Virus record (IMG/VR): IMGVR_UViG_2667527588_000007
Location: 1 to 41,084 of that record
Direction: 5' to 3' (one strand)
Origin: a virus
Lineage: Duplodnaviria; Heunggongvirae; Uroviricota; Caudoviricetes
Length of the DNA stretch: 41,084 nt
The notes under the pieces: model-generated
The model's database searches: none
What the model was told of the DNA's origin: nothing
The model's input: only the letters and a program-made list of their open reading frames with translations
Made by a program: the position numbers and the translations under genes
In this document: in pieces, positions 4,723 to 40,949 of the stretch
Layout of the letters: every line of letters starts with the position of its first letter
Position numbering within the stretch: position 1 is the first letter of the stretch

Positions 4723-5547
4723 TCAGGCGGTGAAAGTACCAATAAAGGTTTCTACTTTGCTGTCTTTGAATTTCTCAACAAGCAGATCACGAAATTCGTT
4801 AGCCATATCTTCCTGCACTGCTTCCAGCTGAATAATGCGCAGAACCAGTACAGGACGATCGCCAGTGATAATGCTGAGGCGTAATTTAAACGGACGTTCT
4901 TTCAGACCTTCAAACGGAACGCATTTAAATTCAAATGCCACTGGCATAATGTCTTTGGTCTTCGCTTCGACAGATTCCATCAGGGAGCGTTTGCCGCTGA
5001 AGTCATTATCTTCAAAATCAGCGGTCTGGTTTGCTTCAATCGTGATTTTACGGATTGCCGCAGCCGCTTTTGTTGCCTGAATGGCGTCACCATTAGCATC
5101 AAAGCCCACAAGGTAGTCGGCCCAGTCTTCAATCCATTCTGCCAGTGACTTCTGGGAGTTACGCTCGCCGTTAACAGACAACAGAGCAGAGAACGGTGCT
5201 GTCTTTTTCAGTTTGAGTGTGGCGGTGTTATCTGCGTGACCTGGTTCATCAATAGTACCCAGGTTAAGCACACTGACGGCACGCATATTATCAGCATCGA
5301 TAAAGCAGCGGGTGCCTTCATCTGCAAGATCTTTAGAATAACGGGTAAAGTCATCGATGCTGGCAGTGGAAAGCGCACCACGGAAACGGAAGCGATTTAA
5401 ATTAAATTTTTCCAGATCATGAATGCGGAAATTCTCAGGCAATGCCACAGCATCGGCACCAATCTTACTGATAATTTCATTAACACCCTGAGCAGAAATA
5501 AGGGCATGGATTTGATTAATTGCGGTTGCGTCTAAGTTCTGAGACAT
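4723..5547 (-). CDS. YfdQ-like (DUF2303 family) phage protein
   Basis: 274 aa beginning [12 protein letters not shown]; recalled as conserved prophage family adjacent to an HD-hydrolase as in CPS-53-type prophages; GAGGA RBS. Confidence 0.55.
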
Positions 5548-5612
5548 AATAAGTCCTCACTATATAAAGATATTCAGTGATGAGATAAATAATCAGTTAA
5601 TTAAAAACGATA

Positions 5613-5975
5613 TTAACGACCTGCTGCGCGGAGTTTTCCGTCAGGTTCACCGGCAAGAGTCAGCAACTGTCCCTGGTCTTCCTGCAGAATAGTCAGGCGA
5701 CCACCGCGATTGACATACATCGGCGTTTCGGTGGTGTCTTCTTCGGAAATTTTCCCGCGGTTAGTCGGGCGAACATATGAGAGTTTGTGTTTGATTTTCA
5801 CTCGGTTCTCATCAAACGGTTCGATTTCCAGGTTGAGCGAGACCTTACCTTTGGTTTTCGTGTTCATCACACCGGAAGCGACTTCACTGAGAACTGCGCC
5901 GATTTTGGTTTCAAATACGCCGCCGTCCAGCTCCCCGATAAATGCCTGCACATCAGTACTGCGTTCGCTAGCCAT
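5613..5975 (-). CDS. hypothetical phage protein
   Basis: Start MASERSTDVQAF preceded by GAGGAG RBS at optimal spacing; the 100-aa N-terminal extension in the ORF track has no RBS and is arginine/leucine-rich. Confidence 0.6.
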   Translation of the reverse strand: MASERSTDVQAFIGELDGGVFETKIGAVLSEVASGVMNTKTKGKVSLNLEIEPFDENRVKIKHKLSYVRPTNRGKISEEDTTETPMYVNRGGRLTILQEDQGQLLTLAGEPDGKLRAAGR

Positions 5976-8185: not shown

Positions 8186-8446
8186 ATGCAATCACCATTA
8201 CGAAATGTGCGTAAGGCGCATGGTTTCACTTTGCAGCATGTTGCTGCGGGTGTTCAAGTCAATCCAGCGACGTTGAGTCGTATTGAGAGGCTGGAGCAGA
8301 TTCCATCTATCGAGCTTGCAGAACGTTTAGCCAATTTTTTTAAGGGTGAAGTCAGCGAAATGCAGATTCTTTATCCGGCACGTTTTCAATCTAGCCAAAA
8401 CCAGAATGGGTTTAAACCACAGGAACAGGAGGTGAACCGTGGGTAA
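8186..8446 (+). CDS. cro: Cro-like HTH regulator
   Basis: 86 aa; HTH QHVAAGVQVNPATLSRIER; divergent from cI; strong RBS. Confidence 0.8.
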   Translation: MQSPLRNVRKAHGFTLQHVAAGVQVNPATLSRIERLEQIPSIELAERLANFFKGEVSEMQILYPARFQSSQNQNGFKPQEQEVNRG

Positions 8447-8990
8447 GCATCACTGGAAAGTAGAAAAACAGCCTGAGTGGTACGTGAAAGCTGTCAGAAA
8501 AACTATCGCAGCGTTGCCGGGGGGGTACGCTGAAGCTGCTGACTGGCTGGATGTAACAGAGAACGCATTATTTAACCGCCTTCGTGCCGATGGCGATCAG
8601 ATTTTCCCGCTGGGATGGGCAATGATTTTGCAACGTGCTGGTGGAACTCACTTCATTGCTGACGCTGTGGCGCAGTCTGCAAATGGCGTCTTTGTGTCTC
8701 TTCCTGATGTCGAGGATGTGGACAACGCCGATATCAACCAACGCCTGCTGGAGGTCATTGAACAGATCGGCAGTTATTCAAAACAGATTCGTTCAGCAAT
8801 TGAAGACGGTGTAGTGGAACCGCATGAGAAGACAGCAATTAACGACGAGCTGTACCTCTCAATTTCGAAGCTGCAGGAGCATGCAGCACTGGTCTACAAA
8901 ATTTTTTGCATTTCAGAAAGTAATGACGCCCGCGAGTGTGCAGCTCCGGGCGCCGTGGCGTGTCGTGACTGTGGAGAAACTAACGCATGA
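8439..8990 (+). CDS. hypothetical early regulatory protein
   Basis: GTG start with AGGAGG RBS; 183 aa with C-terminal Cys cluster; occupies the position after cro. Confidence 0.5.
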
Positions 8991-13306: not shown

Positions 13307-14059
13307 ATGAACCTTGAAGCCTTACCGAAATATTACTCCCCGAAATCTCCAAAACTGAGCGATGACGCCCCGGCGACAGGCTCTGGTGGTTTAACGATTA
13401 CGGATGTGATGGCTGCGCAGGGGATGGTGCAGTCGAAAGCACCGCTTGGGTTTGCCTTATTCCTGGCAAAAGTTGGTGTTCAGGATCCTCAGTTTGCGAT
13501 TGAAGGTCTGCTCAATTACGCGATGGCACTGGATAACCCGACATTGAATAAATTGAGTGAAGAAACCCGGCTACAGATCATTCCTTACCTTGTGAATTTT
13601 GCCTTTGCTGATTATTCCAGGTCTGCGGCAAGTAAGGCTCGCTGTGAGCATTGTGCTGGTACTGGATTTCATAATGTATTGCGCGAAGTGGTGAAACACT
13701 CCAGAAGCGGGGAGTCTGTTATCAAGGAAGAGTGGGTGAAGGAACTATGTCAGCATTGTCATGGTAAGGGAGAAGTCAGCACAGCGTGCAGAGGGTGTAA
13801 GGGTAAAGGTATTGTCCTGGATGAAAAAAGAACCCGGCTTCATGGTACGCCTGTTTATAAGATTTGTGGGCGTTGCAATGGAAAACGGTTTAGTCGTTTA
13901 CCAACCACACTGGCGCGGCATCATGTCCAGAAACTGGTACCAGACCTGACGGATTATCAGTGGTACAAAGGATATGCAGATGTCATTGATAAACTGGTTA
14001 CAAAGTGCTGGCAGGAGGAATCTTACGCTGAAGCACAATTGAGAAAGGTGACAAGATAA
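13307..14059 (+). CDS. Q: late-gene antitermination protein Q
   Basis: 250 aa with CxxC...CxxC zinc-finger region (CEHCAGTG ... CQHCHGKG ... CRGCKGKG); positioned immediately upstream of late promoter and lysis genes. Confidence 0.75.
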   Translation: MNLEALPKYYSPKSPKLSDDAPATGSGGLTITDVMAAQGMVQSKAPLGFALFLAKVGVQDPQFAIEGLLNYAMALDNPTLNKLSEETRLQIIPYLVNFAFADYSRSAASKARCEHCAGTGFHNVLREVVKHSRSGESVIKEEWVKELCQHCHGKGEVSTACRGCKGKGIVLDEKRTRLHGTPVYKICGRCNGKRFSRLPTTLARHHVQKLVPDLTDYQWYKGYADVIDKLVTKCWQEESYAEAQLRKVTR

Positions 14060-14261: not shown

Positions 14262-15047
14262 ATGTATGTTTTTGAGTTAATCAAGCCAGGCAGTAATCTT
14301 AAGTTTGAAAACAGAGAGTTAGAATGGACGTTTAATAACTTATTATCCCATTTAGAAACTGCATTTTATGATGCTAATGTAGCATTAAATTTATTCGAAC
14401 AGGAAAGAACTAAGAATAACAGTAAATTCGATAATATTTCTCAGACATGGCAAGCTGATGTACAGAAACGACAAGCACTGGAAATGCTGGTTCGTAAAGA
14501 GTTTGGTTATCAACCTTATGAATATTCAGAACAGGTTTTTTCAGAGGTCGAGCTACGTCTAAAAAGAGAAAAATGGAATAACGGTGAATATCCGTTGGCT
14601 CATCAACACAGATTGATCTTCTTACATGCAAAATCATTTCTCTACGCTTTGGATGCTATTGATAAATTTTTAAAGGTAATTTCAAAAGAAAATGGCGCGC
14701 CAGAGAACATTAAAAAATTGCATGAACAGCTTTCTAAAGACTTTCCGGATTTAAGAAAGGTAAGGAATTCAGCTCAACACATGGAAGACAGAGTTCGTGG
14801 GCTTGGTGCAGAGAAAGAACCAAAGCCAATAAAACTCAAACCTGTAAATAATATTCATGTTGTTGCACCTCAGGGGGCATTGATGTTGAATAACTTATTC
14901 GGAACTAAATTTGGGTGCACTATGGCTGATGGCTATTATGGTGAAGTAGATATTTCGACAGAGTCTTTGGCAAAGTTGCAAAATTTAATCCAAAAAGTTT
15001 TTAATTCCTTCAGTTGGGAAGGACCAAAGCAACACCTTCCCCGATAA
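14262..15047 (+). CDS. hypothetical protein with HEPN-like RNxxxH motif (candidate abortive-infection/defence moron)
   Basis: 261 aa, AT-rich, all-helical composition; motif RNSAQH fits HEPN R-x4-H; own TATAAT -10 (14226-14231) and own terminator (15065-15097); located between Q and holin. Confidence 0.6.
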   Translation: MYVFELIKPGSNLKFENRELEWTFNNLLSHLETAFYDANVALNLFEQERTKNNSKFDNISQTWQADVQKRQALEMLVRKEFGYQPYEYSEQVFSEVELRLKREKWNNGEYPLAHQHRLIFLHAKSFLYALDAIDKFLKVISKENGAPENIKKLHEQLSKDFPDLRKVRNSAQHMEDRVRGLGAEKEPKPIKLKPVNNIHVVAPQGALMLNNLFGTKFGCTMADGYYGEVDISTESLAKLQNLIQKVFNSFSWEGPKQHLPR

Positions 15048-15136: not shown

Positions 15137-15463
15137 ATGCCTCATAACCCAAATACCTGGCTGGACTTGGTCCAGAGCTGGTGGCGTGGAGACACACCGC
15201 TGGGCGCAGTGATTATGTCGATTGTTATGGCTGGCTTGCGCATTGCATATTTTGGCGGTGGTGGGGGCTGGAAACGAAAAACACTCGAGATTTTGCTCTG
15301 TGGTGCTCTGACGCTGACTTTTGCATCCGCTCTTGAGTATGTCGGATGGCCTAAATCTCTTTCTGTTGCCATTGGTGGTGGCGTTGGGTTGATCGGTGTC
15401 GATGCTATTCGTGGGGCTGCAATGAGTGTAATCGGTAATAAGTTTGGTGGCTCTAAGGAGTAA
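15137..15463 (+). CDS. holin
   Basis: 108 aa from ATG at 15137 (GAGGTGAG RBS); hydrophobic Gly-rich TM segments; immediately upstream of endolysin; track start at 15080 lies inside the terminator hairpin. Confidence 0.75.
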   Translation: MPHNPNTWLDLVQSWWRGDTPLGAVIMSIVMAGLRIAYFGGGGGWKRKTLEILLCGALTLTFASALEYVGWPKSLSVAIGGGVGLIGVDAIRGAAMSVIGNKFGGSKE

Positions 15464-15466
15464 TTT

Positions 15467-15943
15467 ATGCAGGTACTAAATTCCCAGCGTAAAGCTTTCC
15501 TTGATATGGTGGCTTGGTCAGAAGGAACGGATAACGGACGACAACCGACACGTAACCACGGTTATGACGTTATTGTCGGTGGTGAACTCTTCACTGATTA
15601 CTCCGATCACCCTCGCAAACTTGTCACGCTAAACCCGAAACTCAAGTCAACAGCCGCCGGACGTTACCAGCTTCTTTCACGCTGGTGGGATGCTTACCGT
15701 AAACAGCTTGGCCTGAAAGATTTTTCTCCAGAAAGCCAGGACGCTGTAGCTCTGCAGCAGATTAAAGAGCGTGGCGCTTTACCGATGATTGACCGCGGCA
15801 ATATTCGTCAGGCAATCGACCGTTGCAGCAATATCTGGGCGTCGTTACCAGGTGCAGGTTACGGTCAGTATGAACATAAAATCGGCGACCTGATTGCCCG
15901 ATTTAAAGAGGCTGGTGGGGTAGTAAATGAAGCTGAGATATAA
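15467..15943 (+). CDS. R: endolysin, lambda R-type lytic transglycosylase
   Basis: 158 aa; near-colinear with lambda R as recalled (NSQRKAFLDMVAWSEGTDNGRQPTRNHGYDVIVGGELFTDYSDHPRK...); AGGAG RBS. Confidence 0.9.
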   Translation: MQVLNSQRKAFLDMVAWSEGTDNGRQPTRNHGYDVIVGGELFTDYSDHPRKLVTLNPKLKSTAAGRYQLLSRWWDAYRKQLGLKDFSPESQDAVALQQIKERGALPMIDRGNIRQAIDRCSNIWASLPGAGYGQYEHKIGDLIARFKEAGGVVNEAEI

Positions 15944-16319
15944 GCTGGTTATTGTTGCCTTCTTTGTTACCGTCATTGGTTCCTTCATCTGGTCTGTCGG
16001 GCATTACTACAGCAAATATCAGCACGAAAAGGAGCGTGCTGATGAGGCTGTACGAAATGCTGAATCGGCAACTGCCATTACCAATAACGTCCTGCAATCA
16101 ATACAAATCGTAAATACAGCACTGGAGGCTAGCCAGCATGCAAAACAACAAATCGCACTGGAGTCACAGAGAACCCAGGAAGATATCAAAGTGGCTGTTG
16201 CGAATGATGATTGCGCTTCACGTCCTGTGCCTGCTGCCGCTACTGACCGGTTGCGGAAGTACGCGGACAGTTTACGTGAGCACCCCAGTAGCACCACTGT
16301 CAACCACCCTAACTTCTGA
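15927..16319 (+). CDS. Rz: i-spanin Rz
   Basis: 130 aa; N-terminal TM helix then coiled-coil; overlaps endolysin stop; GGTGGGG RBS. Confidence 0.8.
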   Translation: MKLRYKLVIVAFFVTVIGSFIWSVGHYYSKYQHEKERADEAVRNAESATAITNNVLQSIQIVNTALEASQHAKQQIALESQRTQEDIKVAVANDDCASRPVPAAATDRLRKYADSLREHPSSTTVNHPNF

Positions 16320-16452
16320 AACACCGATTCCAATTATACCTAGTCCACTGACATATGGTGCTAGCCTAGACCTGAATGCAAGTTTGTTATCTGCATTAGG
16401 GCAGTGCAATAGAGATAAAAAGGCTATCCGCAGTATAAACAATGCTAGATGA
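16204..16452 (+). CDS. Rz1: o-spanin Rz1 (lipoprotein), overlapping Rz in +1 frame
   Basis: MMIALHVLCLLPLLTGC signal with lipobox LLTGC, Pro-rich mature part; starts inside Rz and extends past its stop. Confidence 0.7.
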   Translation: MMIALHVLCLLPLLTGCGSTRTVYVSTPVAPLSTTLTSETPIPIIPSPLTYGASLDLNASLLSALGQCNRDKKAIRSINNAR

Positions 16453-16467
16453 AGATTTTAATTTAAA

Positions 16468-16493
16468 TTGAAGATGCCTATTACTAGACATCT
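16468..16493. terminator. palindromic hairpin between converging Rz1 and minus-strand moron
   Basis: AAGATG-12 nt-CATCTT stem flanked by A/T-rich sequence on both sides. Confidence 0.35.
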
Positions 16494-16530
16494 TTATAAT
16501 TTATGCTCAAACCAAAGTGGATTTGTAATA

Positions 16531-16905
16531 TTAAAGACTATTTAGGAGACTCTGAATAATAGGCCATAAAGTTAATGTGTTTGCACCAGCTGAGTAAAAT
16601 CGCTCCATCAGTTGTAGAGGTGTTGATGACTGATTAAACTTGATATCATTTAAAATGTCGTATATTTCTTGTAGCTTCTCTGCACCAAGTTTATCGTTAA
16701 TTTCACTTAAGTTATTTTGTATGGCGATTTCTGCTTCTTTTATAAGCCGAACTGTTTCTGCTGAGTAATGAATATTGTTGGAAAGAAAAGTATTAGCTGA
16801 ATCAATAATTTCATAACCAACATCAGCACCAAATGATTTGTTTCCAATTATTTTGATGTTTTCGCATCCCTCAATGCGATAAGCAACGGTTTTCTTTTCA
16901 CTCAT
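16531..16905 (-). CDS. hypothetical protein (AT-rich minus-strand moron)
   Basis: 124-aa ORF antisense to the late operon, flanked by AT-rich intergenic DNA; weak AGGT RBS. Confidence 0.55.
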   Translation of the reverse strand: MSEKKTVAYRIEGCENIKIIGNKSFGADVGYEIIDSANTFLSNNIHYSAETVRLIKEAEIAIQNNLSEINDKLGAEKLQEIYDILNDIKFNQSSTPLQLMERFYSAGANTLTLWPIIQSLLNSL

Positions 16906-17032
16906 GTTATAACCTGTGTTTAGTTACTTTTATTAGAACCTTGTTATCAGATTTTTCTCATAAAGGAAAGAGTGAAAGAGAAAAATGAATCTCTTTTGTC
17001 AAATATGTCTATCAGATTAAAGAGAGTATTTT

Positions 17033-17383
17033 ATGCCAGCACTGATACCTAGAGCCTGCCGTGTTCGCGGCTGCCACCATACCACTACTGACCCGTCAGG
17101 CTATTGTGAAAGCCATAAAAGCGAAGGCTGGAAGCAATACAAGCCAGGCCAGTCCCGTCATCAGCGCGGCTACGGTTCGAAGTGGGACAGTATCCGCGCG
17201 CGCGTCCTGAAGCGTGACAAAGGTTTATGTCAGTTATGTCTGCGTGCCGGTGTGGTGCGTGAAGCTAAAACCGTTGACCACATCATCCCTAAAGCGCATG
17301 GCGGCACCGATGCAGACAGTAATCTGCAGAGCCTGTGCTGGCCGTGCCATAAGACGAAGACGGCCCGTGAACGGCTAAAGTGA
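17033..17383 (+). CDS. HNH endonuclease (packaging-associated)
   Basis: 116 aa; Cys/His motif (CHHT ... CESHKS ... DHIIPKAHGGTDADSNLQSLCWPCHKTK); immediately upstream of terminase small subunit. Confidence 0.85.
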   Translation: MPALIPRACRVRGCHHTTTDPSGYCESHKSEGWKQYKPGQSRHQRGYGSKWDSIRARVLKRDKGLCQLCLRAGVVREAKTVDHIIPKAHGGTDADSNLQSLCWPCHKTKTARERLK

Positions 17384-17469: not shown

Positions 17470-17508
17470 ATACCCGCGAAAAATGAAATTTAACCAGGAG
17501 TGCCGCAT

Positions 17509-18003
17509 ATGGCTGGAACGGCGGGGCGTTCCGGGCGTCGCCCCAAGCCAACGGCGCGCAAGGCGCTGGCCGGAAACCCCGGCAAGCGAGCCCTGAACAA
17601 AGATGAACCTGTTTTTACGCCCATCAAAGGTGTTGAGCCACCGGAGTGGTTCGCAGAAGAAGATCTCCCTCTCGCCACGATCATGTGGCAACTGACAACC
17701 AAAGAACTCTGCGGTCAGGGCCTGCTGTGCGTGACTGACCTGGCGGTACTTGAGCGGTGGTGCGTGGCCTATGAGTTCTGGCGACGTGCCGTGAAAAATA
17801 TTGCCAGACAGGGCAACACCATCACCGGTGCAATGGGCGGCATGGTCAAAAATCCGGAGCTGACCGCCAAAAAAGAACAGGAGTCCGAGATGAGCAGTAC
17901 GGGGGCAATGCTCGGACTCGACCCCAGCAGCCGCCAGCGTCTGATTGGCCTGGCGGGGCAGAAGAAAGCCACTAACCCGTTTCTGAAAATCATCGAATCA
18001 TGA
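17509..18003 (+). CDS. terS: terminase small subunit (P27-like family)
   Basis: Start [14 protein letters not shown] after AGGAG RBS; position upstream of and overlapping terL. Confidence 0.8.
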
Positions 18004-19733
18004 GCCGGAAATCTTACCCCAACGTAAATGCTGCCAATCAGTATGCCCGTGATGTCGTGCGCGGAAAGATTGTGGCCTGCCAGTTTGTGATTCAGGCCTG
18101 CCAGCGCCATCTTGATGACCTGATGGAGGAAAAAAGTAAGTCGTTTCGTTACCGCTTCGACAAGGACCTGGCTGAACGGGCCGCGAAATTTATTCAGCTG
18201 TTGCCGCACACCAAGGGTGAGTGGGCATTTAAGAGGATGCCCATCACGCTGGAGCCGTGGCAGCTCTTTGTGATCTGCTGCGCGTTTGGCTGGGTCAATA
18301 AAGGCTCCCGGCTGCGCCGCTTCCGTGAGGTGTATACCGAAATCCCCCGTAAGAACGGCAAATCGGCAATCTCTGCCGGTGTCGCCCTGTATTGTTTTGC
18401 CTGTGATAACGAGTTCGGCGCGGAAGTGTATTCCGGTGCCACGACGGAGAAACAGGCATGGGAAGTCTTTCGTCCGGCAAGACTGATGTGTAAACGCACA
18501 CCCATGCTGACGGAAGCGTTCGGGATTGAGGTTAACGCCTCAAACATGAACCGTCCGGAGGATGGTGCGCGTTTTGAACCGCTGATCGGTAACCCCGGTG
18601 ATGGTTCATCACCCCACTGTGCGGTGGTGGATGAATATCACGAGCACGCCACAGATGCGCTTTACACCACGATGCTTACCGGGATGGGGGCGCGACGTCA
18701 GCCACTGATGTGGGCTATCACTACCGCCGGGTACAACATTGAGGGGCCGTGCTACGACAAACGGCGGGAAGTCATCGAGATGCTCAACGGCTCGGTGCCT
18801 AACGATGAACTGTTCGGGATCATCTATACCGTTGATGAAGGTGACGACTGGACCGACCCGCAGGTGCTGGAAAAAGCCAATCCAAATATTGGCGTGTCGG
18901 TTTATCGCGAATTTTTGTTAAGTCAGCAGCAGCGTGCGAAAAATAACGCCCGTCTGGCAAACGTCTTTAAAACAAAACACCTCAATATCTGGGTGTCGGC
19001 GCGTTCGGCGTATTTCAACCTGGTGAGCTGGCAGAGCTGCGAGGATAAATCACTGACCCTTGAGCAGTTCGAGGGGCAGCCGTGCATTCTGGCCTTTGAC
19101 CTGGCGCGTAAGCTGGATATGAACAGCATGGCGCGACTTTATACCCGCGAGATTGACGGTAAAACGCATTACTACAGTGTGGCCCCGCGTTTCTGGGTAC
19201 CGTATGACACGGTGTACAGCGTCGAGAAAAATGAAGATCGACGGACAGCCGAACGCTTTCAGAAATGGGTGGAAATGGGCGTTCTGACCGTTACCGATGG
19301 TGCGGAGGTGGATTATCGCTACATCCTCGAGGAGGCCAAAGCGGCGAACAAAATCAGCCCGGTCAGTGAGTCACCCATCGACCCCTTCGGGGCGACCGGG
19401 TTGTCACATGACCTTGCTGATGAAGACCTGAACCCCATCACTATCATTCAGAACTACACCAACATGTCCGACCCGATGAAAGAGCTGGAAGCGGCAATTG
19501 AATCGGGGCGCTTTCATCATGATGGCAATCCCATCATGACCTGGTGTATCGGCAACGTGGTCGGCAAAACCATTCCGGGTAACGATGATGTGGTGAAGCC
19601 CGTCAAAGAGCAGGCGGAAAACAAAATCGATGGTGCAGTTGCGCTGATTATGGCGGTTGGCAGAGCCATGCTGTATGAGAAAGAAGACACTCTGTCCGAC
19701 CACATTGAGTCCTACGGGATCCGCTCGCTTTAA
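18000..19733 (+). CDS. terL: terminase large subunit
   Basis: 577 aa; ATPase and nuclease regions in terminase_1-like arrangement (VVDEYHEH Walker B-like); ATGA coupling to terS. Confidence 0.9.
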
Positions 19734-27469: not shown

Positions 27470-29294
27470 ATTTGAGCTTAAGGCGTTGATCACCGGTGTC
27501 GACAGGCTTTCTCCCGCGCTGTCGAAAATGCAAAAGAAAATCCGGGGATTTAAACGCCAGGCGGAAGAAGCGTCACAGGGTGGGCTGGCGCTTGGTGGCG
27601 GACTGGCAGCGGGTCTGACGCTTTCCCTGAAATCTTATGCCGATCAGGAAAACGCCGCCACCGGGCTGAAAGTCGCCATGATGGATGCGAACAGCGAGGT
27701 TGGAAAGAGCTTTCAGGACATCAATAAACTGGCTATTGGCCTGGGTAACCAGCTACCCGGTACAACGGCTGATTTCCAGAACATGATGCAGATGCTGGTG
27801 CGTCAGGGGATCCCGGCAGAAAACATTCTTGGTGGTGTGGGTAAAGCGACAGCTTATCTTGCGGTACAACTGAAAAAAACACCGGAAGCGGCTGCTGAGT
27901 TTGCTGCAAAGATGCAGGATGCTACCGGAACGGCGTCAGAAGACATGATGGGGCTGTTCGACACTATCCAGAAGGCGTTTTATCTGGGCGTTGACGATAC
28001 CAACATGTTGTCCTTCTTCACTAAAACCAGTTCTGTTCTGAAGATGGTGAATAAGGACGGACTTCAGGCTGCACAGAGCCTTGCCCCTATCAGCGTCATG
28101 ATGGATCAGATGGGGATGAACGGGGAGTCGGCAGGTAATGCCCTGCGAAAAGTTATCCAGTCCGGATTAAGCGTTAAGAAAATCAGGGACGTCAATAAAG
28201 TCATGGCCCGCCAGAAACTCGGGGTACAGCTCGATTTTACTGACGGCAAAGGAAGTTTTGGCGGTCTTGATAACATGTTCAGGCAACTGGCAAAGCTGCG
28301 AAAACTGACCGACGTTAAGCGAACAGGTGTACTTAAGGCAATATTTGGTGATGATGCCGAAACCCTTCAGGTGGTCAATGCACTAATCGATAAAGGAAAG
28401 GATGGCTACGATCAGATCCAGCAGAAGATGAATAAACAGGCCAGCCTGAATAAACGTGTTCAGGCCCAGCTTGGTACGCTGTCCAACCTGTGGGAGGCAA
28501 TGACGGGGACCGCAACTAACGGCCTTGCGGCTATTGGTGGCGCATTTTCTGGTGACGCCAAAAATATCACGCAATGGCTGGGGGAGTTAGGGGAAAAATT
28601 CACGAAGTTTGCGGATGAAAATCCCCGGGTTATTCGCGGCGTCGTCGGGCTTGCTGCCGGTCTTGCGATTCTGAAACTGGGATTGATGGGCGTTGGCGGT
28701 GCCATCAGTATTGTCAGCAGGATCATGTCGATGACGCCGATTGGAATGATTGCGACGGCGATAGCCCTGGCTGCGGGATTAATTATCACTAACTGGGATG
28801 TTGTCGGACCTTATTTCAAGAAGCTCTGGGAAACCATTGGTCCTTATTTTGAGGCTGGCTGGGAACTTCTGAAGAAGGTTTTTGCCTGGTCGCCGCTGGG
28901 GATGGTAATCAATAACTGGGGACCGGTTGTTAAGTGGTTTCAGGATATGTGGGACAAGCTGAAGCCAATTATTGAGTGGTTTACCGACAGTTCCGGTGAC
29001 ACGGTCGATGCCATTAACTCTGCGCAGTGGGGCGCGGGTGCTTATGATGCTTATGGGACGGGAATACTGGCGCGGGGATACACACCTTATCAGGCGGTAG
29101 ATCCGGCTCAGTCAAACAACGCCTCCGATGCCACAGGCTCGAATCCCTTCATGATTAATAAAGCTACCGCGCCAAAAGTTGATGGTGAGATCAAGGTATC
29201 ATTTATAAATATGCCACCAGATATGCGGGTTACGGAAACACGCTCCAGTGGCATTGATATAAATCACGATGTTGGCTATACCCGATTTTGGTAG
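27462..29294 (+). CDS. tail tape measure protein
   Basis: 610 aa, Ala/Gly-rich with hydrophobic C-terminal region; AGGAGA RBS; follows chaperone pair. Confidence 0.9.
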   Translation: MAEFELKALITGVDRLSPALSKMQKKIRGFKRQAEEASQGGLALGGGLAAGLTLSLKSYADQENAATGLKVAMMDANSEVGKSFQDINKLAIGLGNQLPGTTADFQNMMQMLVRQGIPAENILGGVGKATAYLAVQLKKTPEAAAEFAAKMQDATGTASEDMMGLFDTIQKAFYLGVDDTNMLSFFTKTSSVLKMVNKDGLQAAQSLAPISVMMDQMGMNGESAGNALRKVIQSGLSVKKIRDVNKVMARQKLGVQLDFTDGKGSFGGLDNMFRQLAKLRKLTDVKRTGVLKAIFGDDAETLQVVNALIDKGKDGYDQIQQKMNKQASLNKRVQAQLGTLSNLWEAMTGTATNGLAAIGGAFSGDAKNITQWLGELGEKFTKFADENPRVIRGVVGLAAGLAILKLGLMGVGGAISIVSRIMSMTPIGMIATAIALAAGLIITNWDVVGPYFKKLWETIGPYFEAGWELLKKVFAWSPLGMVINNWGPVVKWFQDMWDKLKPIIEWFTDSSGDTVDAINSAQWGAGAYDAYGTGILARGYTPYQAVDPAQSNNASDATGSNPFMINKATAPKVDGEIKVSFINMPPDMRVTETRSSGIDINHDVGYTRFW

Positions 29295-29322
29295 CCAGGA
29301 TTCCCCTCACAGGTATTGCTGG

Positions 29323-29350
29323 TTGTAAGTCATAAATAGAGTGATAGAAT
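29323..29350 (+). promoter_or_regulatory. candidate sigma70 promoter for tail-cluster moron
   Basis: TTGTAA, 16-nt spacer, TAGAAT upstream of the 29386 ORF. Confidence 0.4.
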
Positions 29351-29385
29351 TAATGCACATTTAGAAAAATGTTAATAGGCGAAAA

Positions 29386-29916
29386 ATGAAAGGCTATATC
29401 ACAGCAAGTGTAATTCTTGGAGCAGCGGCTATTTTTTCATCTCTCATAATCTCTGGCAACATCTCCTTTAAAGATGAACATATTATTCAGTTATCTGGAG
29501 GAGCCATAAAACTTGGTGATGTTTATAAAGAAAATAAATTGATAAGTGCAAAGATTATTTTTCCAGATAATCAGGGTGAACAGATTCTTGTTGTCGACGG
29601 CAATCCTGAAAACTTTAAGGAGGATTTTCAGGAGAAATTAAATAAAGTAATAAAAACTTTAAATGCGTCAAAGAAAAAAGATGAAGAGAAAGTTAGCCTG
29701 GATAATTTAAGTGTTATTGAAGAGTCTAAACTAGAGCTCGTTTCTGCGGTGCGTTACTCTGCTCAGTATGTTCCTATGTTTACTCTGACGCTGGACAAAA
29801 AAGAAATTACCATGCCTAAAAATACGGTAATATTTCCATTTGCCAGCGATGAAACAGCTAAGTATTTAAATGAACAACAGCAAAAGTATAAAGATTCGTT
29901 GTTTCTGACTCGCTAA
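29386..29916 (+). CDS. hypothetical membrane-anchored protein (AT-rich moron inside tail cluster)
   Basis: 176 aa; N-terminal hydrophobic anchor (ITASVILGAAAIFSSLIISG); Lys/Glu-rich; own promoter and terminator. Confidence 0.6.
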   Translation: MKGYITASVILGAAAIFSSLIISGNISFKDEHIIQLSGGAIKLGDVYKENKLISAKIIFPDNQGEQILVVDGNPENFKEDFQEKLNKVIKTLNASKKKDEEKVSLDNLSVIEESKLELVSAVRYSAQYVPMFTLTLDKKEITMPKNTVIFPFASDETAKYLNEQQQKYKDSLFLTR

Positions 29917-29934
29917 TTAATAAAATTCATTACA

Positions 29935-29965
29935 AGGCCACCTTCTAATAGGTGGCTTTTTTATT
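29935..29965 (+). terminator. intrinsic terminator after tail-cluster moron
   Basis: GGCCACC-TTCTAATA-GGTGGC hairpin followed by TTTTTTATTTT. Confidence 0.8.
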
Positions 29966-29977
29966 TTCGGAGTGTAT

Positions 29978-31306
29978 ATGACGTGGAAAGACAGGCTTCA
30001 GGATGCGTCATTTCGAGGTGTGCCGTTTAAGGTTGAAGAAGAAAGTGCGGGAACCGGTCGCCGTGTGGAAACACATGAATACCCGAACCGCGACAAGCCC
30101 TATACCGAAGATCTGGGAAAAGTCACTTTCCGCCCGTCCATCACAGCTTATGTGGTGGGAGATGACTGCTTTGACCAGCGCGATCGCCTGATTGAAGCGC
30201 TGAATAAACCAGGTCCCGGCACGCTTGTCCACCCGACATATGGTGAGCTGAAAGTCTGTGTTGACGGGGAAGTTCGGGTCAGCACATCGAAAAGTGAAGG
30301 GCGTATTGTCCGCTTTGACCTGAAGTTTGTCGAAGCGGGAGAACTCTCTTACCCCACATCAGGCGTGGCGACGGCGCAGACGCTGATGTCATCCTGTTCT
30401 GCACTGGATGACTGCATCAGTGACAGTTTCAGTAGTTTCAGTATCGATGGCGTGGCAGATTTTGTGCAGAACGACGTCGTCGGTAATGCCAGCACAATGC
30501 TTGGGTATGTTTCTGATGCGATGAAAGTGGTGGATTCTGCCGTATCGGATGCCGCCAGGCTGTTGCAGGGGGATATCTCGGTACTTCTGCCGCCGCCATC
30601 GTCAGGCAAAAATTTCGTTGAGCAGGTGCAGAAAATGTGGCGTACCGGGAAACGCCTTTATGGTAACGCCAGCGACCTGGTCACCATGATCAAAACGCTT
30701 TCCGGTGTCAGCCTCGGCAGCGATCTGCAACCGCGCGGCGTCTGGAAAACGGACAGTAAAACCACCGCCACGGCTACGCAGCAGCGTAACGTGGTTGCCA
30801 GCACCCTTCGTACGACCGCAATCAGCGAAGCGACGTATGCCGTCACCCGATTGCCTGCGCCAACAACTTCCGCGGTGATGCAGAATGCCGCAGTGGGGCA
30901 GGCAACAACACCTGCGCAGAGCACTGGCTGGCCTTCCGTCACGCATCCGGCACTGAACAATGCACCGGCGGTGAAAAACACAGTTGACCTGCCGACGTGG
31001 GAAGAACTGACTGACATTCGCGACACACTGAATACGGCAATTGATAAGGAGTTGTCCCGTACAACCAGTGATGCGCTGTTTCTGGCGCTGCGCCGGGTGA
31101 AAGCAGATCTGAATGCGGATATCAACACGCGCCTTGAACAGTCTGCACGGATCATTCAGCGCGCACCGGATGAGGTTTTACCCGCGCTGGTGCTGGCGGC
31201 GACCTGGTTTGATAACGCGGCGCGTGACGCGGACATTATTCGGCGTAATGCCATTACGCATCCCGGCTTTGTGCCGGTGATCCCTCTGAAGGTGCCAGTG
31301 CAATGA
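29978..31306 (+). CDS. DNA circulation protein (Mu gpN-like)
   Basis: ATG at 29978 with GGAG RBS 6 nt upstream; N-terminal region typical of Mu N family; follows tape measure. Confidence 0.7.
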   Translation: MTWKDRLQDASFRGVPFKVEEESAGTGRRVETHEYPNRDKPYTEDLGKVTFRPSITAYVVGDDCFDQRDRLIEALNKPGPGTLVHPTYGELKVCVDGEVRVSTSKSEGRIVRFDLKFVEAGELSYPTSGVATAQTLMSSCSALDDCISDSFSSFSIDGVADFVQNDVVGNASTMLGYVSDAMKVVDSAVSDAARLLQGDISVLLPPPSSGKNFVEQVQKMWRTGKRLYGNASDLVTMIKTLSGVSLGSDLQPRGVWKTDSKTTATATQQRNVVASTLRTTAISEATYAVTRLPAPTTSAVMQNAAVGQATTPAQSTGWPSVTHPALNNAPAVKNTVDLPTWEELTDIRDTLNTAIDKELSRTTSDALFLALRRVKADLNADINTRLEQSARIIQRAPDEVLPALVLAATWFDNAARDADIIRRNAITHPGFVPVIPLKVPVQ

Positions 31307-37159: not shown

Positions 37160-37498
37160 ATGCTCATCGGTTATGTACGTGTGTCAACAAATGACCAGAA
37201 CACCGCATTGCAACGAAACGCACTGGAGTGCGCAGGATGTGAACTGATATTCGAGGATAAGATCAGCGGCAGATGGGGGGGCAGTCAGGGGGTTGCCCAG
37301 CTCAATTTGTTTGATGAAAACGCGCCACGCCCGGGTAGTGAGAAACTGATGGAAGTGTTGGATCACCTCAACGCCAAAGACGGCAGGGGAACCTTGTACT
37401 TTACCAGGCAGGGTATCCAGCCACAGTTGCAGATGAAACGCGAGATGCTTTCACCTAGATATACAACGAGATATGATGACATATTAAGAGTTAAATAG
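37160..37498 (+). pseudogene. serine DNA invertase (Pin/Gin/Hin family) remnant: only the first 37 codons conserved
   Basis: MLIGYVRVSTNDQNTALQRNALECAGCELIFEDKISG matches invertase N-terminus including catalytic Ser; downstream sequence in all frames lacks the remaining catalytic core; break coincides with a G7 run. Confidence 0.7.
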
Positions 37499-37517
37499 AA
37501 CATCAGCGAGGTGATAA

Positions 37518-38513
37518 ATGAAAGGGATATATTATGAGAATACTCGAACCTCTATACCGGGGTGGATATCAAACCTTCATGAAACTCAAAGGTTTGGTTA
37601 CGCTTATGAAACAAGTACTCACTTTGTTCATTTATATGGTAAAGCTGAACCTTTTAATGTCATATCAGTTGGCCTTACCGCAATACAAGGTAAAAGTGGG
37701 ACTCTAAATGATTGGGTTATAAATACATTTGGAGCAACTAACATCCAAACATTACAAAATGATATCGGACATGTTGTTGAAGGTGTCTGGAGACCATCTT
37801 TATATTATAGCGATGACATTCAAGGTGCGTTGTTAGTTGATCCGTTCGAGAAAATGTCGTCAGGACAAGCTCTGCGCAATCTTATTAATAAACTCGATGA
37901 ATTATTTTTGTACATTGAGCCAAGCATCACAGGTCTGAAAGCATATAGCCATAAATGCAGGGAGCTATTAATTTTGGCTTGTACAGAAGTTGAGAATCAG
38001 TGGGTGTCACTGATAAAAAAAACAAACCTAAATAATGTAGGGGCTAGATATACAACTAGGGACTATGTACGGCTTGCAGATAAATGTTTTTTAAAAGAAT
38101 ACAAGGTGAATTTTAAAAATTACTCAGGCTTAAGAGATTTCACACCATTTTTATCTTGGGTTCCGACTGCCTCTACTGGCTCTTTACCTTGGTACGATGC
38201 TTATAATGGAACTAAGCATGATAGGGAAGCAGGTTTTAATCTCGCATCATTGGAGAATGTGATGGATGCCTTATCTGCTTGTATAGTATTGTATTGTGTT
38301 AAATATGGACCTTATGATTTGGTGTCTGGTGGGGATCTGCTTTCAGGAACGTTTAACGAGCATTTTTCTCTTAGTTTCATAAATAGTGATAAAAGTAGCT
38401 ATTACGTTCCCGAATTGAATTTTAACGCAAACGCAATAACAGACTTGTGTGTGATTGACTGTTATAGAGAAAAACTCAACAAAGCATGGGTTACAGAACC
38501 TCTTGTTTTATAG
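37518..38513 (+). CDS. hypothetical protein (AT-rich accessory gene at invertase-proximal hotspot)
   Basis: 331 aa, GAGGTG RBS, AT-rich with Asn/Tyr-rich composition; occupies DNA that replaced the invertase 3' portion. Confidence 0.6.
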   Translation: MKGIYYENTRTSIPGWISNLHETQRFGYAYETSTHFVHLYGKAEPFNVISVGLTAIQGKSGTLNDWVINTFGATNIQTLQNDIGHVVEGVWRPSLYYSDDIQGALLVDPFEKMSSGQALRNLINKLDELFLYIEPSITGLKAYSHKCRELLILACTEVENQWVSLIKKTNLNNVGARYTTRDYVRLADKCFLKEYKVNFKNYSGLRDFTPFLSWVPTASTGSLPWYDAYNGTKHDREAGFNLASLENVMDALSACIVLYCVKYGPYDLVSGGDLLSGTFNEHFSLSFINSDKSSYYVPELNFNANAITDLCVIDCYREKLNKAWVTEPLVL

Positions 38514-39174
38514 GTAGTATTAATTCAGCACCTTGATTTTTTGTATTTCCCACGGCACGCGTCACGGCGTGCCAGATAAACGTGTCGGCAGACGCTGTAC
38601 CCTTAGCAACAATCTCCTCCACCACTCTACCTACGACATTCTGCCGTATCCACTCACGAGCTGCTTCCGGTGATAGCACCAGCGGCCGGCGATCATGAAT
38701 ATCTACCAGCCCTTTATCCGCAGCAGTAGTTACAATCAGGAACCCCTCAGCTTCATCGCCACGTTCAAATGGTGTGCTGCCAATAGCGGCCATGAATATA
38801 GGCTGGCCGTCAGCCCTGCGAATGAAGTAGGGCTGTTTTATAATGCCTTCGCGCTTCCATTCGAACCAACCATCAGCAAAGCAAATTGCACGTCCATGCA
38901 ACCAGAGAGGTTTGAACATTCGGCTGGTGGCCGCAGTTTCTGAGCGTGCGTTAATCAGCGGAGGTTTATTCCACCATCCGGGAGCGAATCCCCAGATAAC
39001 AGGATCGAGGTGCAACTGTTCGTCGCGTTCGCTCAAAAGCAGAACTTTGGTACCGGGTGCAACGTTGAATCGTCCAATTGGTTCTGGAACGTATGGGATG
39101 TCACGCTCAGCTTCTTCTGATAGGAGGGCAAGATAGTCTTCACGCGTCATTGATTGGGCGAAACGTCCGCACAT
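38491..39174 (-). CDS. SOS-response-associated peptidase (SRAP / YedK-like abasic-site processing protein)
   Basis: N-terminal MCGRFAQ with catalytic Cys2; 227 aa; GGAGG RBS. Confidence 0.8.
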   Translation of the reverse strand: MCGRFAQSMTREDYLALLSEEAERDIPYVPEPIGRFNVAPGTKVLLLSERDEQLHLDPVIWGFAPGWWNKPPLINARSETAATSRMFKPLWLHGRAICFADGWFEWKREGIIKQPYFIRRADGQPIFMAAIGSTPFERGDEAEGFLIVTTAADKGLVDIHDRRPLVLSPEAAREWIRQNVVGRVVEEIVAKGTASADTFIWHAVTRAVGNTKNQGAELILPIKQEVL

Positions 39175-39398: not shown

Positions 39399-39689
39399 AG
39401 ACACGTCGTATGCAAGAACTTGCTGCGGCTGGATGGTGGACTTTCGATAGTGCGAGTATTGAATGATGTCCAGCCGTTATTGATTTTACGTATTTTTTGC
39501 ATGAAAAGATTAGCACCTCATCCCACCGCTCCTCCATGATTTTACACCACTGTCTCTAGAGCTCTGTGTGCCAGAAGCGGAAGTTCATACCTCTAAGTGG
39601 ATATTTTGTTAAAATATGCCATCAAAATCCTTGCTACCTCATGGTTGACAGTGATAAAAGTTGCACAAATTACTGAGAGAGAAATTACA

Positions 39690-40127
39690 ATGAGTGGAGA
39701 TACCTCTGAGTTTCCTAATAAACTTCCCAGAAAGCCAATAGGTTGGCGTGAAGAATATAGTGATTTTACAGGTAGTATTATATTCTATATGATATTCCCG
39801 TTGCTTCCATTACTTTTTGAGTCAATTAACACAGGAACTCACCCTTCAATACAATCATTAACAATTACTGCATCAATATACTCTTTTTCCATCGGTGTAT
39901 CTTCTCGAGATAAAGCTATTTTTTGCTTAGGGATTTTTTGTGGTTTCATTCTCGCTTATCTTTACGGTAAAGTTAGTGAGCCAAAAGTTATTATATATAC
40001 CTGGTACTATGTAGTTACGGTGATACTACTGGCTGTAATATTTATATTTCATCTTCTCGAACGATTTAATAAACACGTGGTAGAATGTGAACCTGTTTTC
40101 TCCTTTAAGTTTACGAGAGGTATGTAA
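39690..40127 (+). CDS. hypothetical multi-pass membrane protein
   Basis: ATG at 39690 preceded by purine-rich GAGAGAGA and a TTGACA -35-like motif (39645-39650); AT-rich; several hydrophobic segments; track start at 39597 is GTG. Confidence 0.5.
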   Translation: MSGDTSEFPNKLPRKPIGWREEYSDFTGSIIFYMIFPLLPLLFESINTGTHPSIQSLTITASIYSFSIGVSSRDKAIFCLGIFCGFILAYLYGKVSEPKVIIYTWYYVVTVILLAVIFIFHLLERFNKHVVECEPVFSFKFTRGM

Positions 40128-40594
40128 TGGAGGATATTATATTTATGTATGCTGGGTTGATAGTGTCTTCTTTAGCGGCAATTGTAGGCTTAGCTACATC
40201 TATCATGCATACTCGTAAAAAAGTTAAAGCTAATGAAGAGCTTGCAACTGAAATGGCAAAGAGCTTTAGTGAGCTTGAATCTATCAATAAAAGCATAGGG
40301 GATTTGGAAGCGACAATTAAAAGGATAGATGAAGATGAATTAAAGTTAAGAATAGCAATTGAATCTTTAAAGGAAATGACTTCTGATGAAAAAAAAGAAT
40401 CTAGGGATATGTTGAAAAACATCGTTAATGATGAGGTGTTCATTAAAGTTCTTCTCGAAAGCTATAAAAAACTGGATACCCAGTCAAAGAAGGAGATTTA
40501 TTTGACTTTTTCCAAGTCGACAGATAGAGGCCTTTATCGATATATAAAAAGAATAGCTTCATCAGTACTCGATAACTTAATGGTTAAAATATAA
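40127..40594 (+). CDS. hypothetical membrane-anchored coiled-coil protein
   Basis: TAATG coupling to upstream gene; GAGAGG RBS; N-terminal TM helix followed by Glu/Lys-rich helical region; AT-rich. Confidence 0.55.
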   Translation: MEDIIFMYAGLIVSSLAAIVGLATSIMHTRKKVKANEELATEMAKSFSELESINKSIGDLEATIKRIDEDELKLRIAIESLKEMTSDEKKESRDMLKNIVNDEVFIKVLLESYKKLDTQSKKEIYLTFSKSTDRGLYRYIKRIASSVLDNLMVKI

Positions 40595-40949
40595 ATGCGT
40601 GCGCGCGAGATACAATTTCTCGCGCATTGTGTAACCGGCGACAAAACCCTGTTATCATTATAGCGACCCGTTTAGATGGGCCATTTGTGCCCCAACAGCT
40701 TCTGGGTATAGATTTCCTCGGCCCTGTATAGATACTTTGCTAAAGAGTATTTTAATGGTATTTTGCTTACGTACTATTCTTCTAACGAATGTCTGCCTTA
40801 TCCTGTGAGCTGCCTTCGCTCAGCATTGGCCTGTTTCTCGTTGATTTATATACTGCGACACTAACATAGGCGGATATGTCCGCTCCTCGCTCATAACAGA
40901 CATTCACTACAGTTATGGCAGAAAGGTATGCATGCTGGGTGGGGAAAGT

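Follow-up and report, generated by a model that had tools for sequence, protein, structure and literature searches.

Morons at the junction of the lysis and packaging genes include well-known conversion and defence genes, such as bor and taiEcA. The bor gene of phage lambda is the classic moron expressed in the lysogen. TaiEcA of phage phi80 (orf63) blocks the tail assembly of other phages; it is constitutive in the lysogen and lowered on expression of Q, an arrangement described as a 'non-contiguous operon', and Tai homologues are mostly found upstream of the packaging genes, at moron loci (PMC11364771). Here, a gene in such a position is described: an open reading frame (ORF) of 124 amino acids on the minus strand, at positions 16531–16905 of the 41,084-nucleotide stretch of viral DNA IMGVR_UViG_2667527588_000007. 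This whole stretch, hereafter the window, has the layout of a lambdoid prophage whose heads are of the HK97 type and whose tail is contractile.

Coding status and boundaries of the antisense gene

The ORF starts with ATG in the ORF list of the window. Its RefSeq entry is the hypothetical protein WP_021570658.1 of Escherichia coli L725 (NZ_CP036202, gene D9K49_RS01945), a strain whose prophage is 99.8–100% identical to the window in the region of the gene. Between lysC, which closes the lysis cassette, and the HNH endonuclease gene that opens the packaging module, it is the sole annotated or plausible antisense gene. The sequence-only reading had described it as the one gene opposing the late operon from the end of lysis to the HNH and terminase genes, and the annotation and the ORF list both agree. 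The features of this region are as follows.

16204–16452, plus strand: lysC, an embedded LysC/Rz1-like o-spanin gene, the final lysis-cassette gene, convergent with the 124-residue ORF (Pfam LysC, E 2.4e-14)
16412–17023, no strand: low-GC (guanine plus cytosine) cargo segment of 612 bp, GC content 0.312, delimited by pairwise blastn against loci L009–L013 and by GC content
16464–16503, minus strand: stem-loop 3' of the ORF, with the inner stem AAGAUGUCUA/UAGGCAUCUU at 16471–16494 (RNA folding)
16531–16905, minus strand: the 124-residue antisense ORF (ORF call and RefSeq annotation)
16913–16915, minus strand: Shine-Dalgarno-like AGG, 7 nucleotides upstream of the ATG (sequence and upstream alignment)
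16941–16965, minus strand: conserved upstream block CTTTATGAGAAAAATCTGATAACAA, 25 nucleotides (upstream alignment)
17033–17383, plus strand: HNH endonuclease gene, opening the packaging module and divergent from the 124-residue ORF (Pfam HNH, E 5.4e-16)

At the composition of the segment the stop probability per codon is 0.0775, and the probability of 124 open codons is 4.5e-5; an open run at least as long as the ORF was found in just 4 of 5000 shuffles of the 612-bp segment. Codon-level comparison of the window with the group of homologues of about 70% identity gave a nonsynonymous divergence (dN) of about 0.2–0.3 with saturated synonymous sites, the synonymous divergence (dS) being saturated against L002, L006 and L007. 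Where dS could be measured, dN/dS lies between 0.10 and 0.33; saturation at synonymous sites applies to the comparison with homologues of 56–72% identity. In the alignment of the homologues, the start codon and the amino-terminus of the protein are kept, and the identical protein sequence is present on 428 contigs. Because of the dN/dS values and the saturation of synonymous sites, the ORF is regarded as a real gene: it is a genuine protein-coding gene under purifying selection. Lack of conservation in related prophages, which the sequence-only reading had named as an argument against itself, is not what was found; selection of this kind acts on the gene in several different prophage backbones.

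Prophages with flanks 89–96% identical to those of the window exist that do not have the gene. Against empty-slot and other-cargo prophages, homology breaks off near position 16411, inside the 3' part of lysC, and is regained near position 17024, 9 nucleotides ahead of the ATG of the HNH gene (blastn against L009–L013). The final 13 or so codons of lysC fall within the cargo segment, and the carboxy-terminus of the o-spanin, encoded by cargo-side DNA (16412–16452), reads …KKAIRSINNAR, versus …KAGIRSIEMRHNALLAAGK in an empty-site prophage. The base composition of the segment deviates from that of its surroundings. As had been read from the sequence, the gene lies between AT-rich spacers: the GC content is 0.244 in the 78 nucleotides between the stop codons of lysC and of the ORF, 0.333 in the ORF itself and 0.268 in the 127 nucleotides from the start of the ORF to that of HNH, compared to 0.489 in the lysis genes and 0.551 in the packaging genes. 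The homologous genes have GC contents of 0.31–0.38 in backgrounds of about 0.5. The 612-bp segment does not contain any ORF on the plus strand. It is carried by 15 of 5,426 complete E. coli genomes, of which 1,266 have related flanks on the lysis or the packaging side.

In E. coli prophages, the junction between lysC and HNH is a variable cargo slot, as observed in five loci:

L009 (strain GPEC1189): empty, with a gap of 26 nucleotides and flanks 89–94% identical to the window
L010: two hypothetical genes on the sense strand
L011: two antisense hypothetical genes (189 and 111 amino acids)
L012: a GrlR-family gene
L013: 418 nucleotides, no annotation

Presence and absence with sharp boundaries, the deviant GC content and a 3' hairpin on the gene's own strand are the reasons for which positions 16412–17023 may well be a single-gene moron, that is, a horizontally exchanged cargo cassette at the lysis/packaging junction of a lambdoid prophage. 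The same three properties bear out the sequence-only reading, in which the gene had been called a moron. Morons in the bor slot are a textbook kind of element; the family to which this protein belongs is unnamed.

Family, conserved slot and predicted fold

In a collection of 5.8 billion protein clusters, the relatives of the protein form one cluster at 98% identity, four at 69–72% and one at 56%; their sources are E. coli, Citrobacter braakii and Salmonella Alachua, and each is named 'hypothetical'. A profile search of 1.84 billion representative proteins gave 25 matches at E ≤ 1e-3. About 18 of these are small proteins of 120–145 amino acids with a layout like that of the window protein; matches to giant repetitive proteins are due to repeats or low complexity. 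The family is small (about 25 clusters in the 1.84 billion representatives) and apparently confined to enterobacterial prophages. Megablast of the segment and tblastn with three members found no family member in 50,697 sequenced phage genomes, and every known member comes from a prophage or from a contig derived from one. A scan of genome contigs with a conserved peptide retrieved no relatives. No mention of the window protein turned up in the literature searched by accession or in the DefensePredictor paper's supplements.

Wherever there is enough context, the family member is antisense, with the last lysis gene on one side and the first gene of the packaging side on the other; the sole exception is a 2.5-kb contig in which the gene lies beside fragments of IS21. 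The contexts are:

L002–L007: holin_3_7 or holin_8 with GH19 endolysin; HNH plus P27 terminase, or lambda-type DUF1441/GpA terminase
L008: HNH neighbour
L014–L016 (member about 20% identical): GH108 endolysin; Terminase_2/Terminase_3
L017–L019: three extra genes, then P27 terminase
L026–L031 (IMG/VR loci, 70% to 31% identity): arrangement as in the window

Members from L014–L019 are 20–27% identical to the window protein, and both slot and antisense orientation are kept down to about 20% identity, in prophages of E. coli, Citrobacter and Salmonella, despite differing lysis cassettes and terminases.

Several of these loci and sequences have features of their own. An ORF of 76 amino acids in late-operon orientation is located between the spanin gene and the family gene in L002/L006 (6418–6648, minus strand) and L028 (5473–5703, minus strand), its copies being 84–96% identical. 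The window, L008, L014 and L017 lack this ORF, which has no Pfam match and probably belongs to the lysis-cassette type rather than to the moron. In L031, a same-strand HEAT-repeat ORF of 68 residues precedes the family gene and AT-rich ORFs come after it, the features of this locus being at 4738–4944 (plus), 5401–5715 (minus) and 8309–8599 (plus). The Q-holin slot of L031 contains an AT-rich, antisense, beta-helix-like ORF of 96 amino acids; a relationship to the family was considered and is unsupported (hhalign probability 11.8%). The 124-residue member P0049 (JGI/IMG) is labelled 'sRNA-binding carbon storage regulator CsrA' by one source; neither sequence nor model supports this label, which looks like an annotation error. 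Two shorter sequences, P0007 (86 amino acids) and P0014 (63 amino acids), are disrupted copies of the window gene. They have a common junction peptide (…GNDSNLLIVFYVQIMPDD…) in place of the carboxy-terminal or amino-terminal half, which suggests, from the sequences, that some metagenomic strains have an insertion in the gene.

The protein itself has no match in curated families. The best Pfam hit is NosD, with 15.3 bits against a cut-off of 23.6; PHROGs and NCBIfam gave nothing significant, and a sequence profile search of the PDB gave no hit below E 0.1. When the 22 aligned members were searched against Pfam one by one, sub-threshold matches to NosD (8 of 22) and Beta_helix (4 of 22) were obtained, with a best E of 3.2e-5, covering the amino-terminal 45 residues. 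No catalytic motif can be recognised, and there is no enzyme-family match in Pfam (also member-wise), PHROGs, PADLOC, NCBIfam or the PDB profile search. The sequence-only reading had stated that the protein belongs to no recognisable family. This holds for curated families; it has to be amended in that a small unnamed family exists, with a weak PbH1/beta-helix signal at its amino-terminus.

Homology searches and structure prediction, which had been put forward as checks, yielded this family and a confident model. With seven close sequences, AlphaFold2 reached a mean predicted local distance difference test score (pLDDT) of 58.5; with the 22-sequence family alignment, the pLDDT was 91.5 and the predicted template modelling score (pTM) 0.78, a gain due to the distant members added from the search of 1.84 billion representatives. 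The predicted structure is made up of two right-handed parallel beta-helix (PbH1-like) rungs capped by a helical bundle. Each rung contains 22 residues and three strands (residues 7–12, 18–20 and 23–25 in the first, 29–34, 40–42 and 45–47 in the second), with a pLDDT above 90 for these strands; the two rungs span residues ~7–47. The bundle (residues 49–123) contains five helices, formed by residues 49–64, 66–73, 75–90, 96–106 and 114–123. Conservation in the family is highest in the motif S-x-G-A-N-x-L-T-x-W-P (residues 105–115), which forms the loop and turn joining the last two helices.

At the amino-terminus (MSEKKTVAYRIEGC), the hydrophobic h-region, signal peptide and lipobox are all absent, in agreement with the earlier statement that there is no lipoprotein signal. 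The most hydrophobic 19-residue stretch is carboxy-terminal (Kyte-Doolittle mean 0.86) and packs into the bundle in the model. With a net charge of −5, the protein is mildly acidic, and it is predicted to be soluble and cytoplasmic and to have no signal peptide.

Candidate transcription signals and possible function

Folded as minus-strand RNA, the 78-nucleotide spacer downstream of the gene has an energy of −16.6 kcal/mol (z-score −4.1); as plus-strand RNA, the fold is weaker (−11.7 kcal/mol, z-score −1.3). Homologues of about 70% identity have a different, stronger hairpin right after the stop codon (−19.8 kcal/mol and a z-score of −5.0 in L002). The stem-loop at 16464–16503 is a candidate for terminating the antisense transcript or stabilising its 3' end. 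Upstream, a Shine-Dalgarno-like AGG, AGGA or AGGAG precedes every copy in the alignment, the homologues having AGGA or AGGAG. The block at 16941–16965 holds an imperfect 8-4-8 inverted repeat, TTATGAGA-N4-TCTGATAA, and is retained in homologues of about 70% identity despite the saturation of synonymous sites in their coding sequences; it is a candidate for a promoter or an operator. The idea that the inverted repeat is an operator also used in the immunity region was rejected, as it occurs in a single copy in the window, no more than expected by chance. Candidate extended −10 elements are present in relatives: TGtTATATT in L002/L026, TGcTATATT in L014/L017 and TATAAT in L027/L028. Rfam gave sub-threshold chance matches only on the segment.

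That the gene forms a transcription unit of its own, uncoupled from the late operon under Q, is plausible from three features: an orientation that never varies, a 3' hairpin that differs in stability between the strands, and the block conserved upstream. It would be transcribed alone, from a promoter in the 127-nucleotide AT-rich spacer, and its transcript would end at the hairpin at 16464–16503. Orientation, hairpin and upstream block point to expression in the lysogen; after induction, convergent late transcription antiterminated by Q would lower the expression of the gene, as in the phi80 taiEcA precedent.

As to function, it is tentatively proposed that the protein is neither an enzyme nor a surface factor but binds another protein, giving the lysogen or prophage an advantage in phage-phage competition, by way of superinfection exclusion or of defence. 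A protein-binding role is favoured because the protein is small, predicted to be soluble and devoid of a recognisable enzyme motif. The defence part of this proposal follows an analogy, given that PADLOC is blank both for the ORF and for ten other cargo genes of the slot. A more specific version appears distinctly improbable: that of a new single-gene anti-phage family of prophages, whose two-rung beta-helix caps, or acts as a decoy for, beta-helical or trimeric virion parts of competitors (tailspike, tail fibre), with the antisense placement as a built-in switch by which convergent late transcription under Q would silence the gene once its own prophage is induced.

A number of results weigh against a role in competition or against the transcription proposed for it. 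Not one of the 5,027 defence models of PADLOC-DB 2.0.0 matches the protein at E ≤ 1, and the ten alternative cargo genes sampled from the lysC-HNH slot, being blank as well, do not support a defence hotspot. Foldseek searches of BFVD and the PDB with the model gave nothing at E ≤ 1e-3 and no relative of the whole fold. A conserved ORF for a partner or for counter-defence was looked for beside the gene in the loci compared, and none was found; homology to TaiEcA was tried and rejected (hhalign probability 0.09%, BLASTP E 5.3). The carboxy-terminal 19-residue hydrophobicity rises up to 1.94 in distant members, which makes a membrane association of the family possible. At the level of transcription, the consensus terminator scan did not call the hairpin at 16464–16503, which lacks a clear U-tract, and the promoter scan gave no convincing sigma-70 consensus promoter upstream of the window copy.

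Other explanations were weighed against the same evidence. A lysogenic-conversion factor that alters host physiology or virulence, functionally analogous to Bor or to the GrlR-like regulator of the slot, would share its slot and orientation with lambda bor; a GrlR-family regulator does occupy the corresponding slot of another prophage, and the carrier strains were isolated from human, poultry, pig, goat and frog. Without a signal peptide or lipobox the protein is not a surface factor like Bor, however, no DNA-binding or regulator domain was found in it, and the gene is rare, with its 15 carriers among the 5,426 complete E. coli genomes, so that this explanation is unlikely. An accessory of the phage's own lytic cycle, made from its own promoter soon after induction or infection and serving lysis timing, packaging, host takeover or anti-defence, is doubtful to a similar degree: the gene runs head-on into late transcription, being antisense in all of about 12 independent contexts, closely related, viable-looking prophages do not have it, and none of the 50,697 sequenced phage genomes contains a family member. 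The gene does adjoin lysis and packaging genes in every context examined, and the product is small, acidic (net charge −5) and predicted to be soluble, as are many inhibitors encoded by phages.

That the antisense transcript, or the AT-rich DNA as such, is what functions here, as a transcriptional insulator, an antisense repressor of leaky lysis read-through or a site of H-NS nucleation, with the ORF being incidental, is very unlikely. The convergence with lysC, the conserved upstream block and the AT-richness of the segment (GC content 0.24–0.33) fit such a role, strong AT-richness being typical of DNA bound by H-NS. Purifying selection, however, acts at the level of the protein (dN/dS of 0.10–0.33 with saturated synonymous sites), the protein architecture is kept to about 20% identity, where the DNA can no longer be aligned, the predicted fold is confident, the 3' hairpin should end the transcript short of lysC, and there is no match to any Rfam family. 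A chance ORF or a decaying remnant, for which the lack of a promoter call in the window copy and the disrupted copies P0007 and P0014 could be cited, is essentially refuted by the shuffle test, the dN/dS values, the conservation of the family and the occurrence of the exact protein on 428 contigs.

If the protein does act in defence or exclusion, as tentatively proposed, a very small single-gene system would be added to those described, and the locus would be a second case of 'non-contiguous operon' control of the phi80 type. With a confident but unmatched fold, a strict slot and orientation, and its absence from sequenced phage isolates, it is a candidate for a phage-challenge or interaction screen. 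Should it have no role in defence, it would be another hypothetical cargo gene of a prophage, and no surprise to phage specialists.

Other features of the window and comparison with described systems

The genes located around the lysC-HNH junction in the window are:

13307–14059, plus strand: Q-type antiterminator
14262–15047, plus strand: AT-rich ORF of 261 amino acids
ending at 15463, plus strand: lambda-S-type holin
15467–15943, plus strand: GH24 lysozyme
15927–16319, plus strand: DUF2570 Rz-like i-spanin
17500–18003, plus strand: P27-family small terminase
18000–19733, plus strand: large terminase
from 19927, plus strand: portal, then head and tail genes

The ORF of 261 amino acids is a second low-GC cargo gene (GC content 0.36), located in sense orientation in the slot between Q and the holin gene, which is the location of stx in Stx phages. 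It matches phrog_5322 (E 5e-140) and has no match in Pfam, PADLOC, NCBIfam or the PDB. An R-N-S-A-(Q)-H motif (Rx4H, HEPN-like) is kept in homologues of 65% and 40% identity. Homologues of this ORF fill the Q-holin slot in L002, L005 and L006, which also have the 124-residue antisense gene.

Further islands with a GC content below 0.38, at 29201–30000, 37451–38550 and 39551–40650, contain ORFs without a Pfam match and may be additional morons or cargo close to the attachment site:

29386–29916: ORF of 176 amino acids, inside the tail module
37518–38513: ORF of 331 amino acids, near the right end
39597–40594: ORFs of 176 and 155 amino acids, near the right end

An ORF of 112 amino acids (37160–37498, plus strand) joins an amino-terminal resolvase fragment to DUF4113 and has the look of a remnant left by truncation or fusion. 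It adjoins tail-fibre and tail-fibre-assembly genes on the opposite strand, and this adjacency suggests a former invertible segment. Next after the resolvase-fragment and tail-fibre genes, a gene for an SRAP (YedK-like) peptidase is present, the entry coordinates being 37160–37498 (plus) and 38491–39174 (minus).

When the protein is compared to described systems, its similarity to PbH1 proteins (Pfam Beta_helix PF13229 and NosD PF05048, tailspikes, pectate lyases) resides in the 22-residue, three-stranded rungs of the model, while its score stays below the Pfam gathering score of these families. The slot of HK97 gp15 is in the tail region, unlike that of the window gene. Superinfection exclusion has been shown for gp15, which is an unrelated protein; for the window protein it is a proposal. 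What the window gene has in common with gp15 and the lambdoid morons (Hendrix, Juhala) is an extra gene between otherwise adjacent genes, a deviant GC content and a 3' hairpin.

Lambda bor is likewise a small antisense gene located right after Rz, where the late lysis region ends on the right and ahead of packaging (an ORF of 97 amino acids, J02459, 46459–46752, complement). The placement of the window gene in the bor slot, as given by the sequence-only reading, is correct in position and orientation and does not extend to homology: a homologue of Bor was considered and rejected, with no Lambda_Bor match in Pfam at E ≤ 1. Bor has a lipoprotein signal, MKKMLLATALALLITGC (LLITGC), and is exported, whereas the window protein has no signal. 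The phi80 gene for TaiEcA is also antisense, between Rz1/rha and cos, and the window gene similarly interrupts a Q-dependent late operon. TaiEcA is larger, with 204 amino acids compared to 124, and next to its gene the late operon carries atiEcA, which serves counter-defence, while the window gene has no ati-like neighbour. By analogy of arrangement, TaiEcA is the best model for the likely regulation of the window gene.

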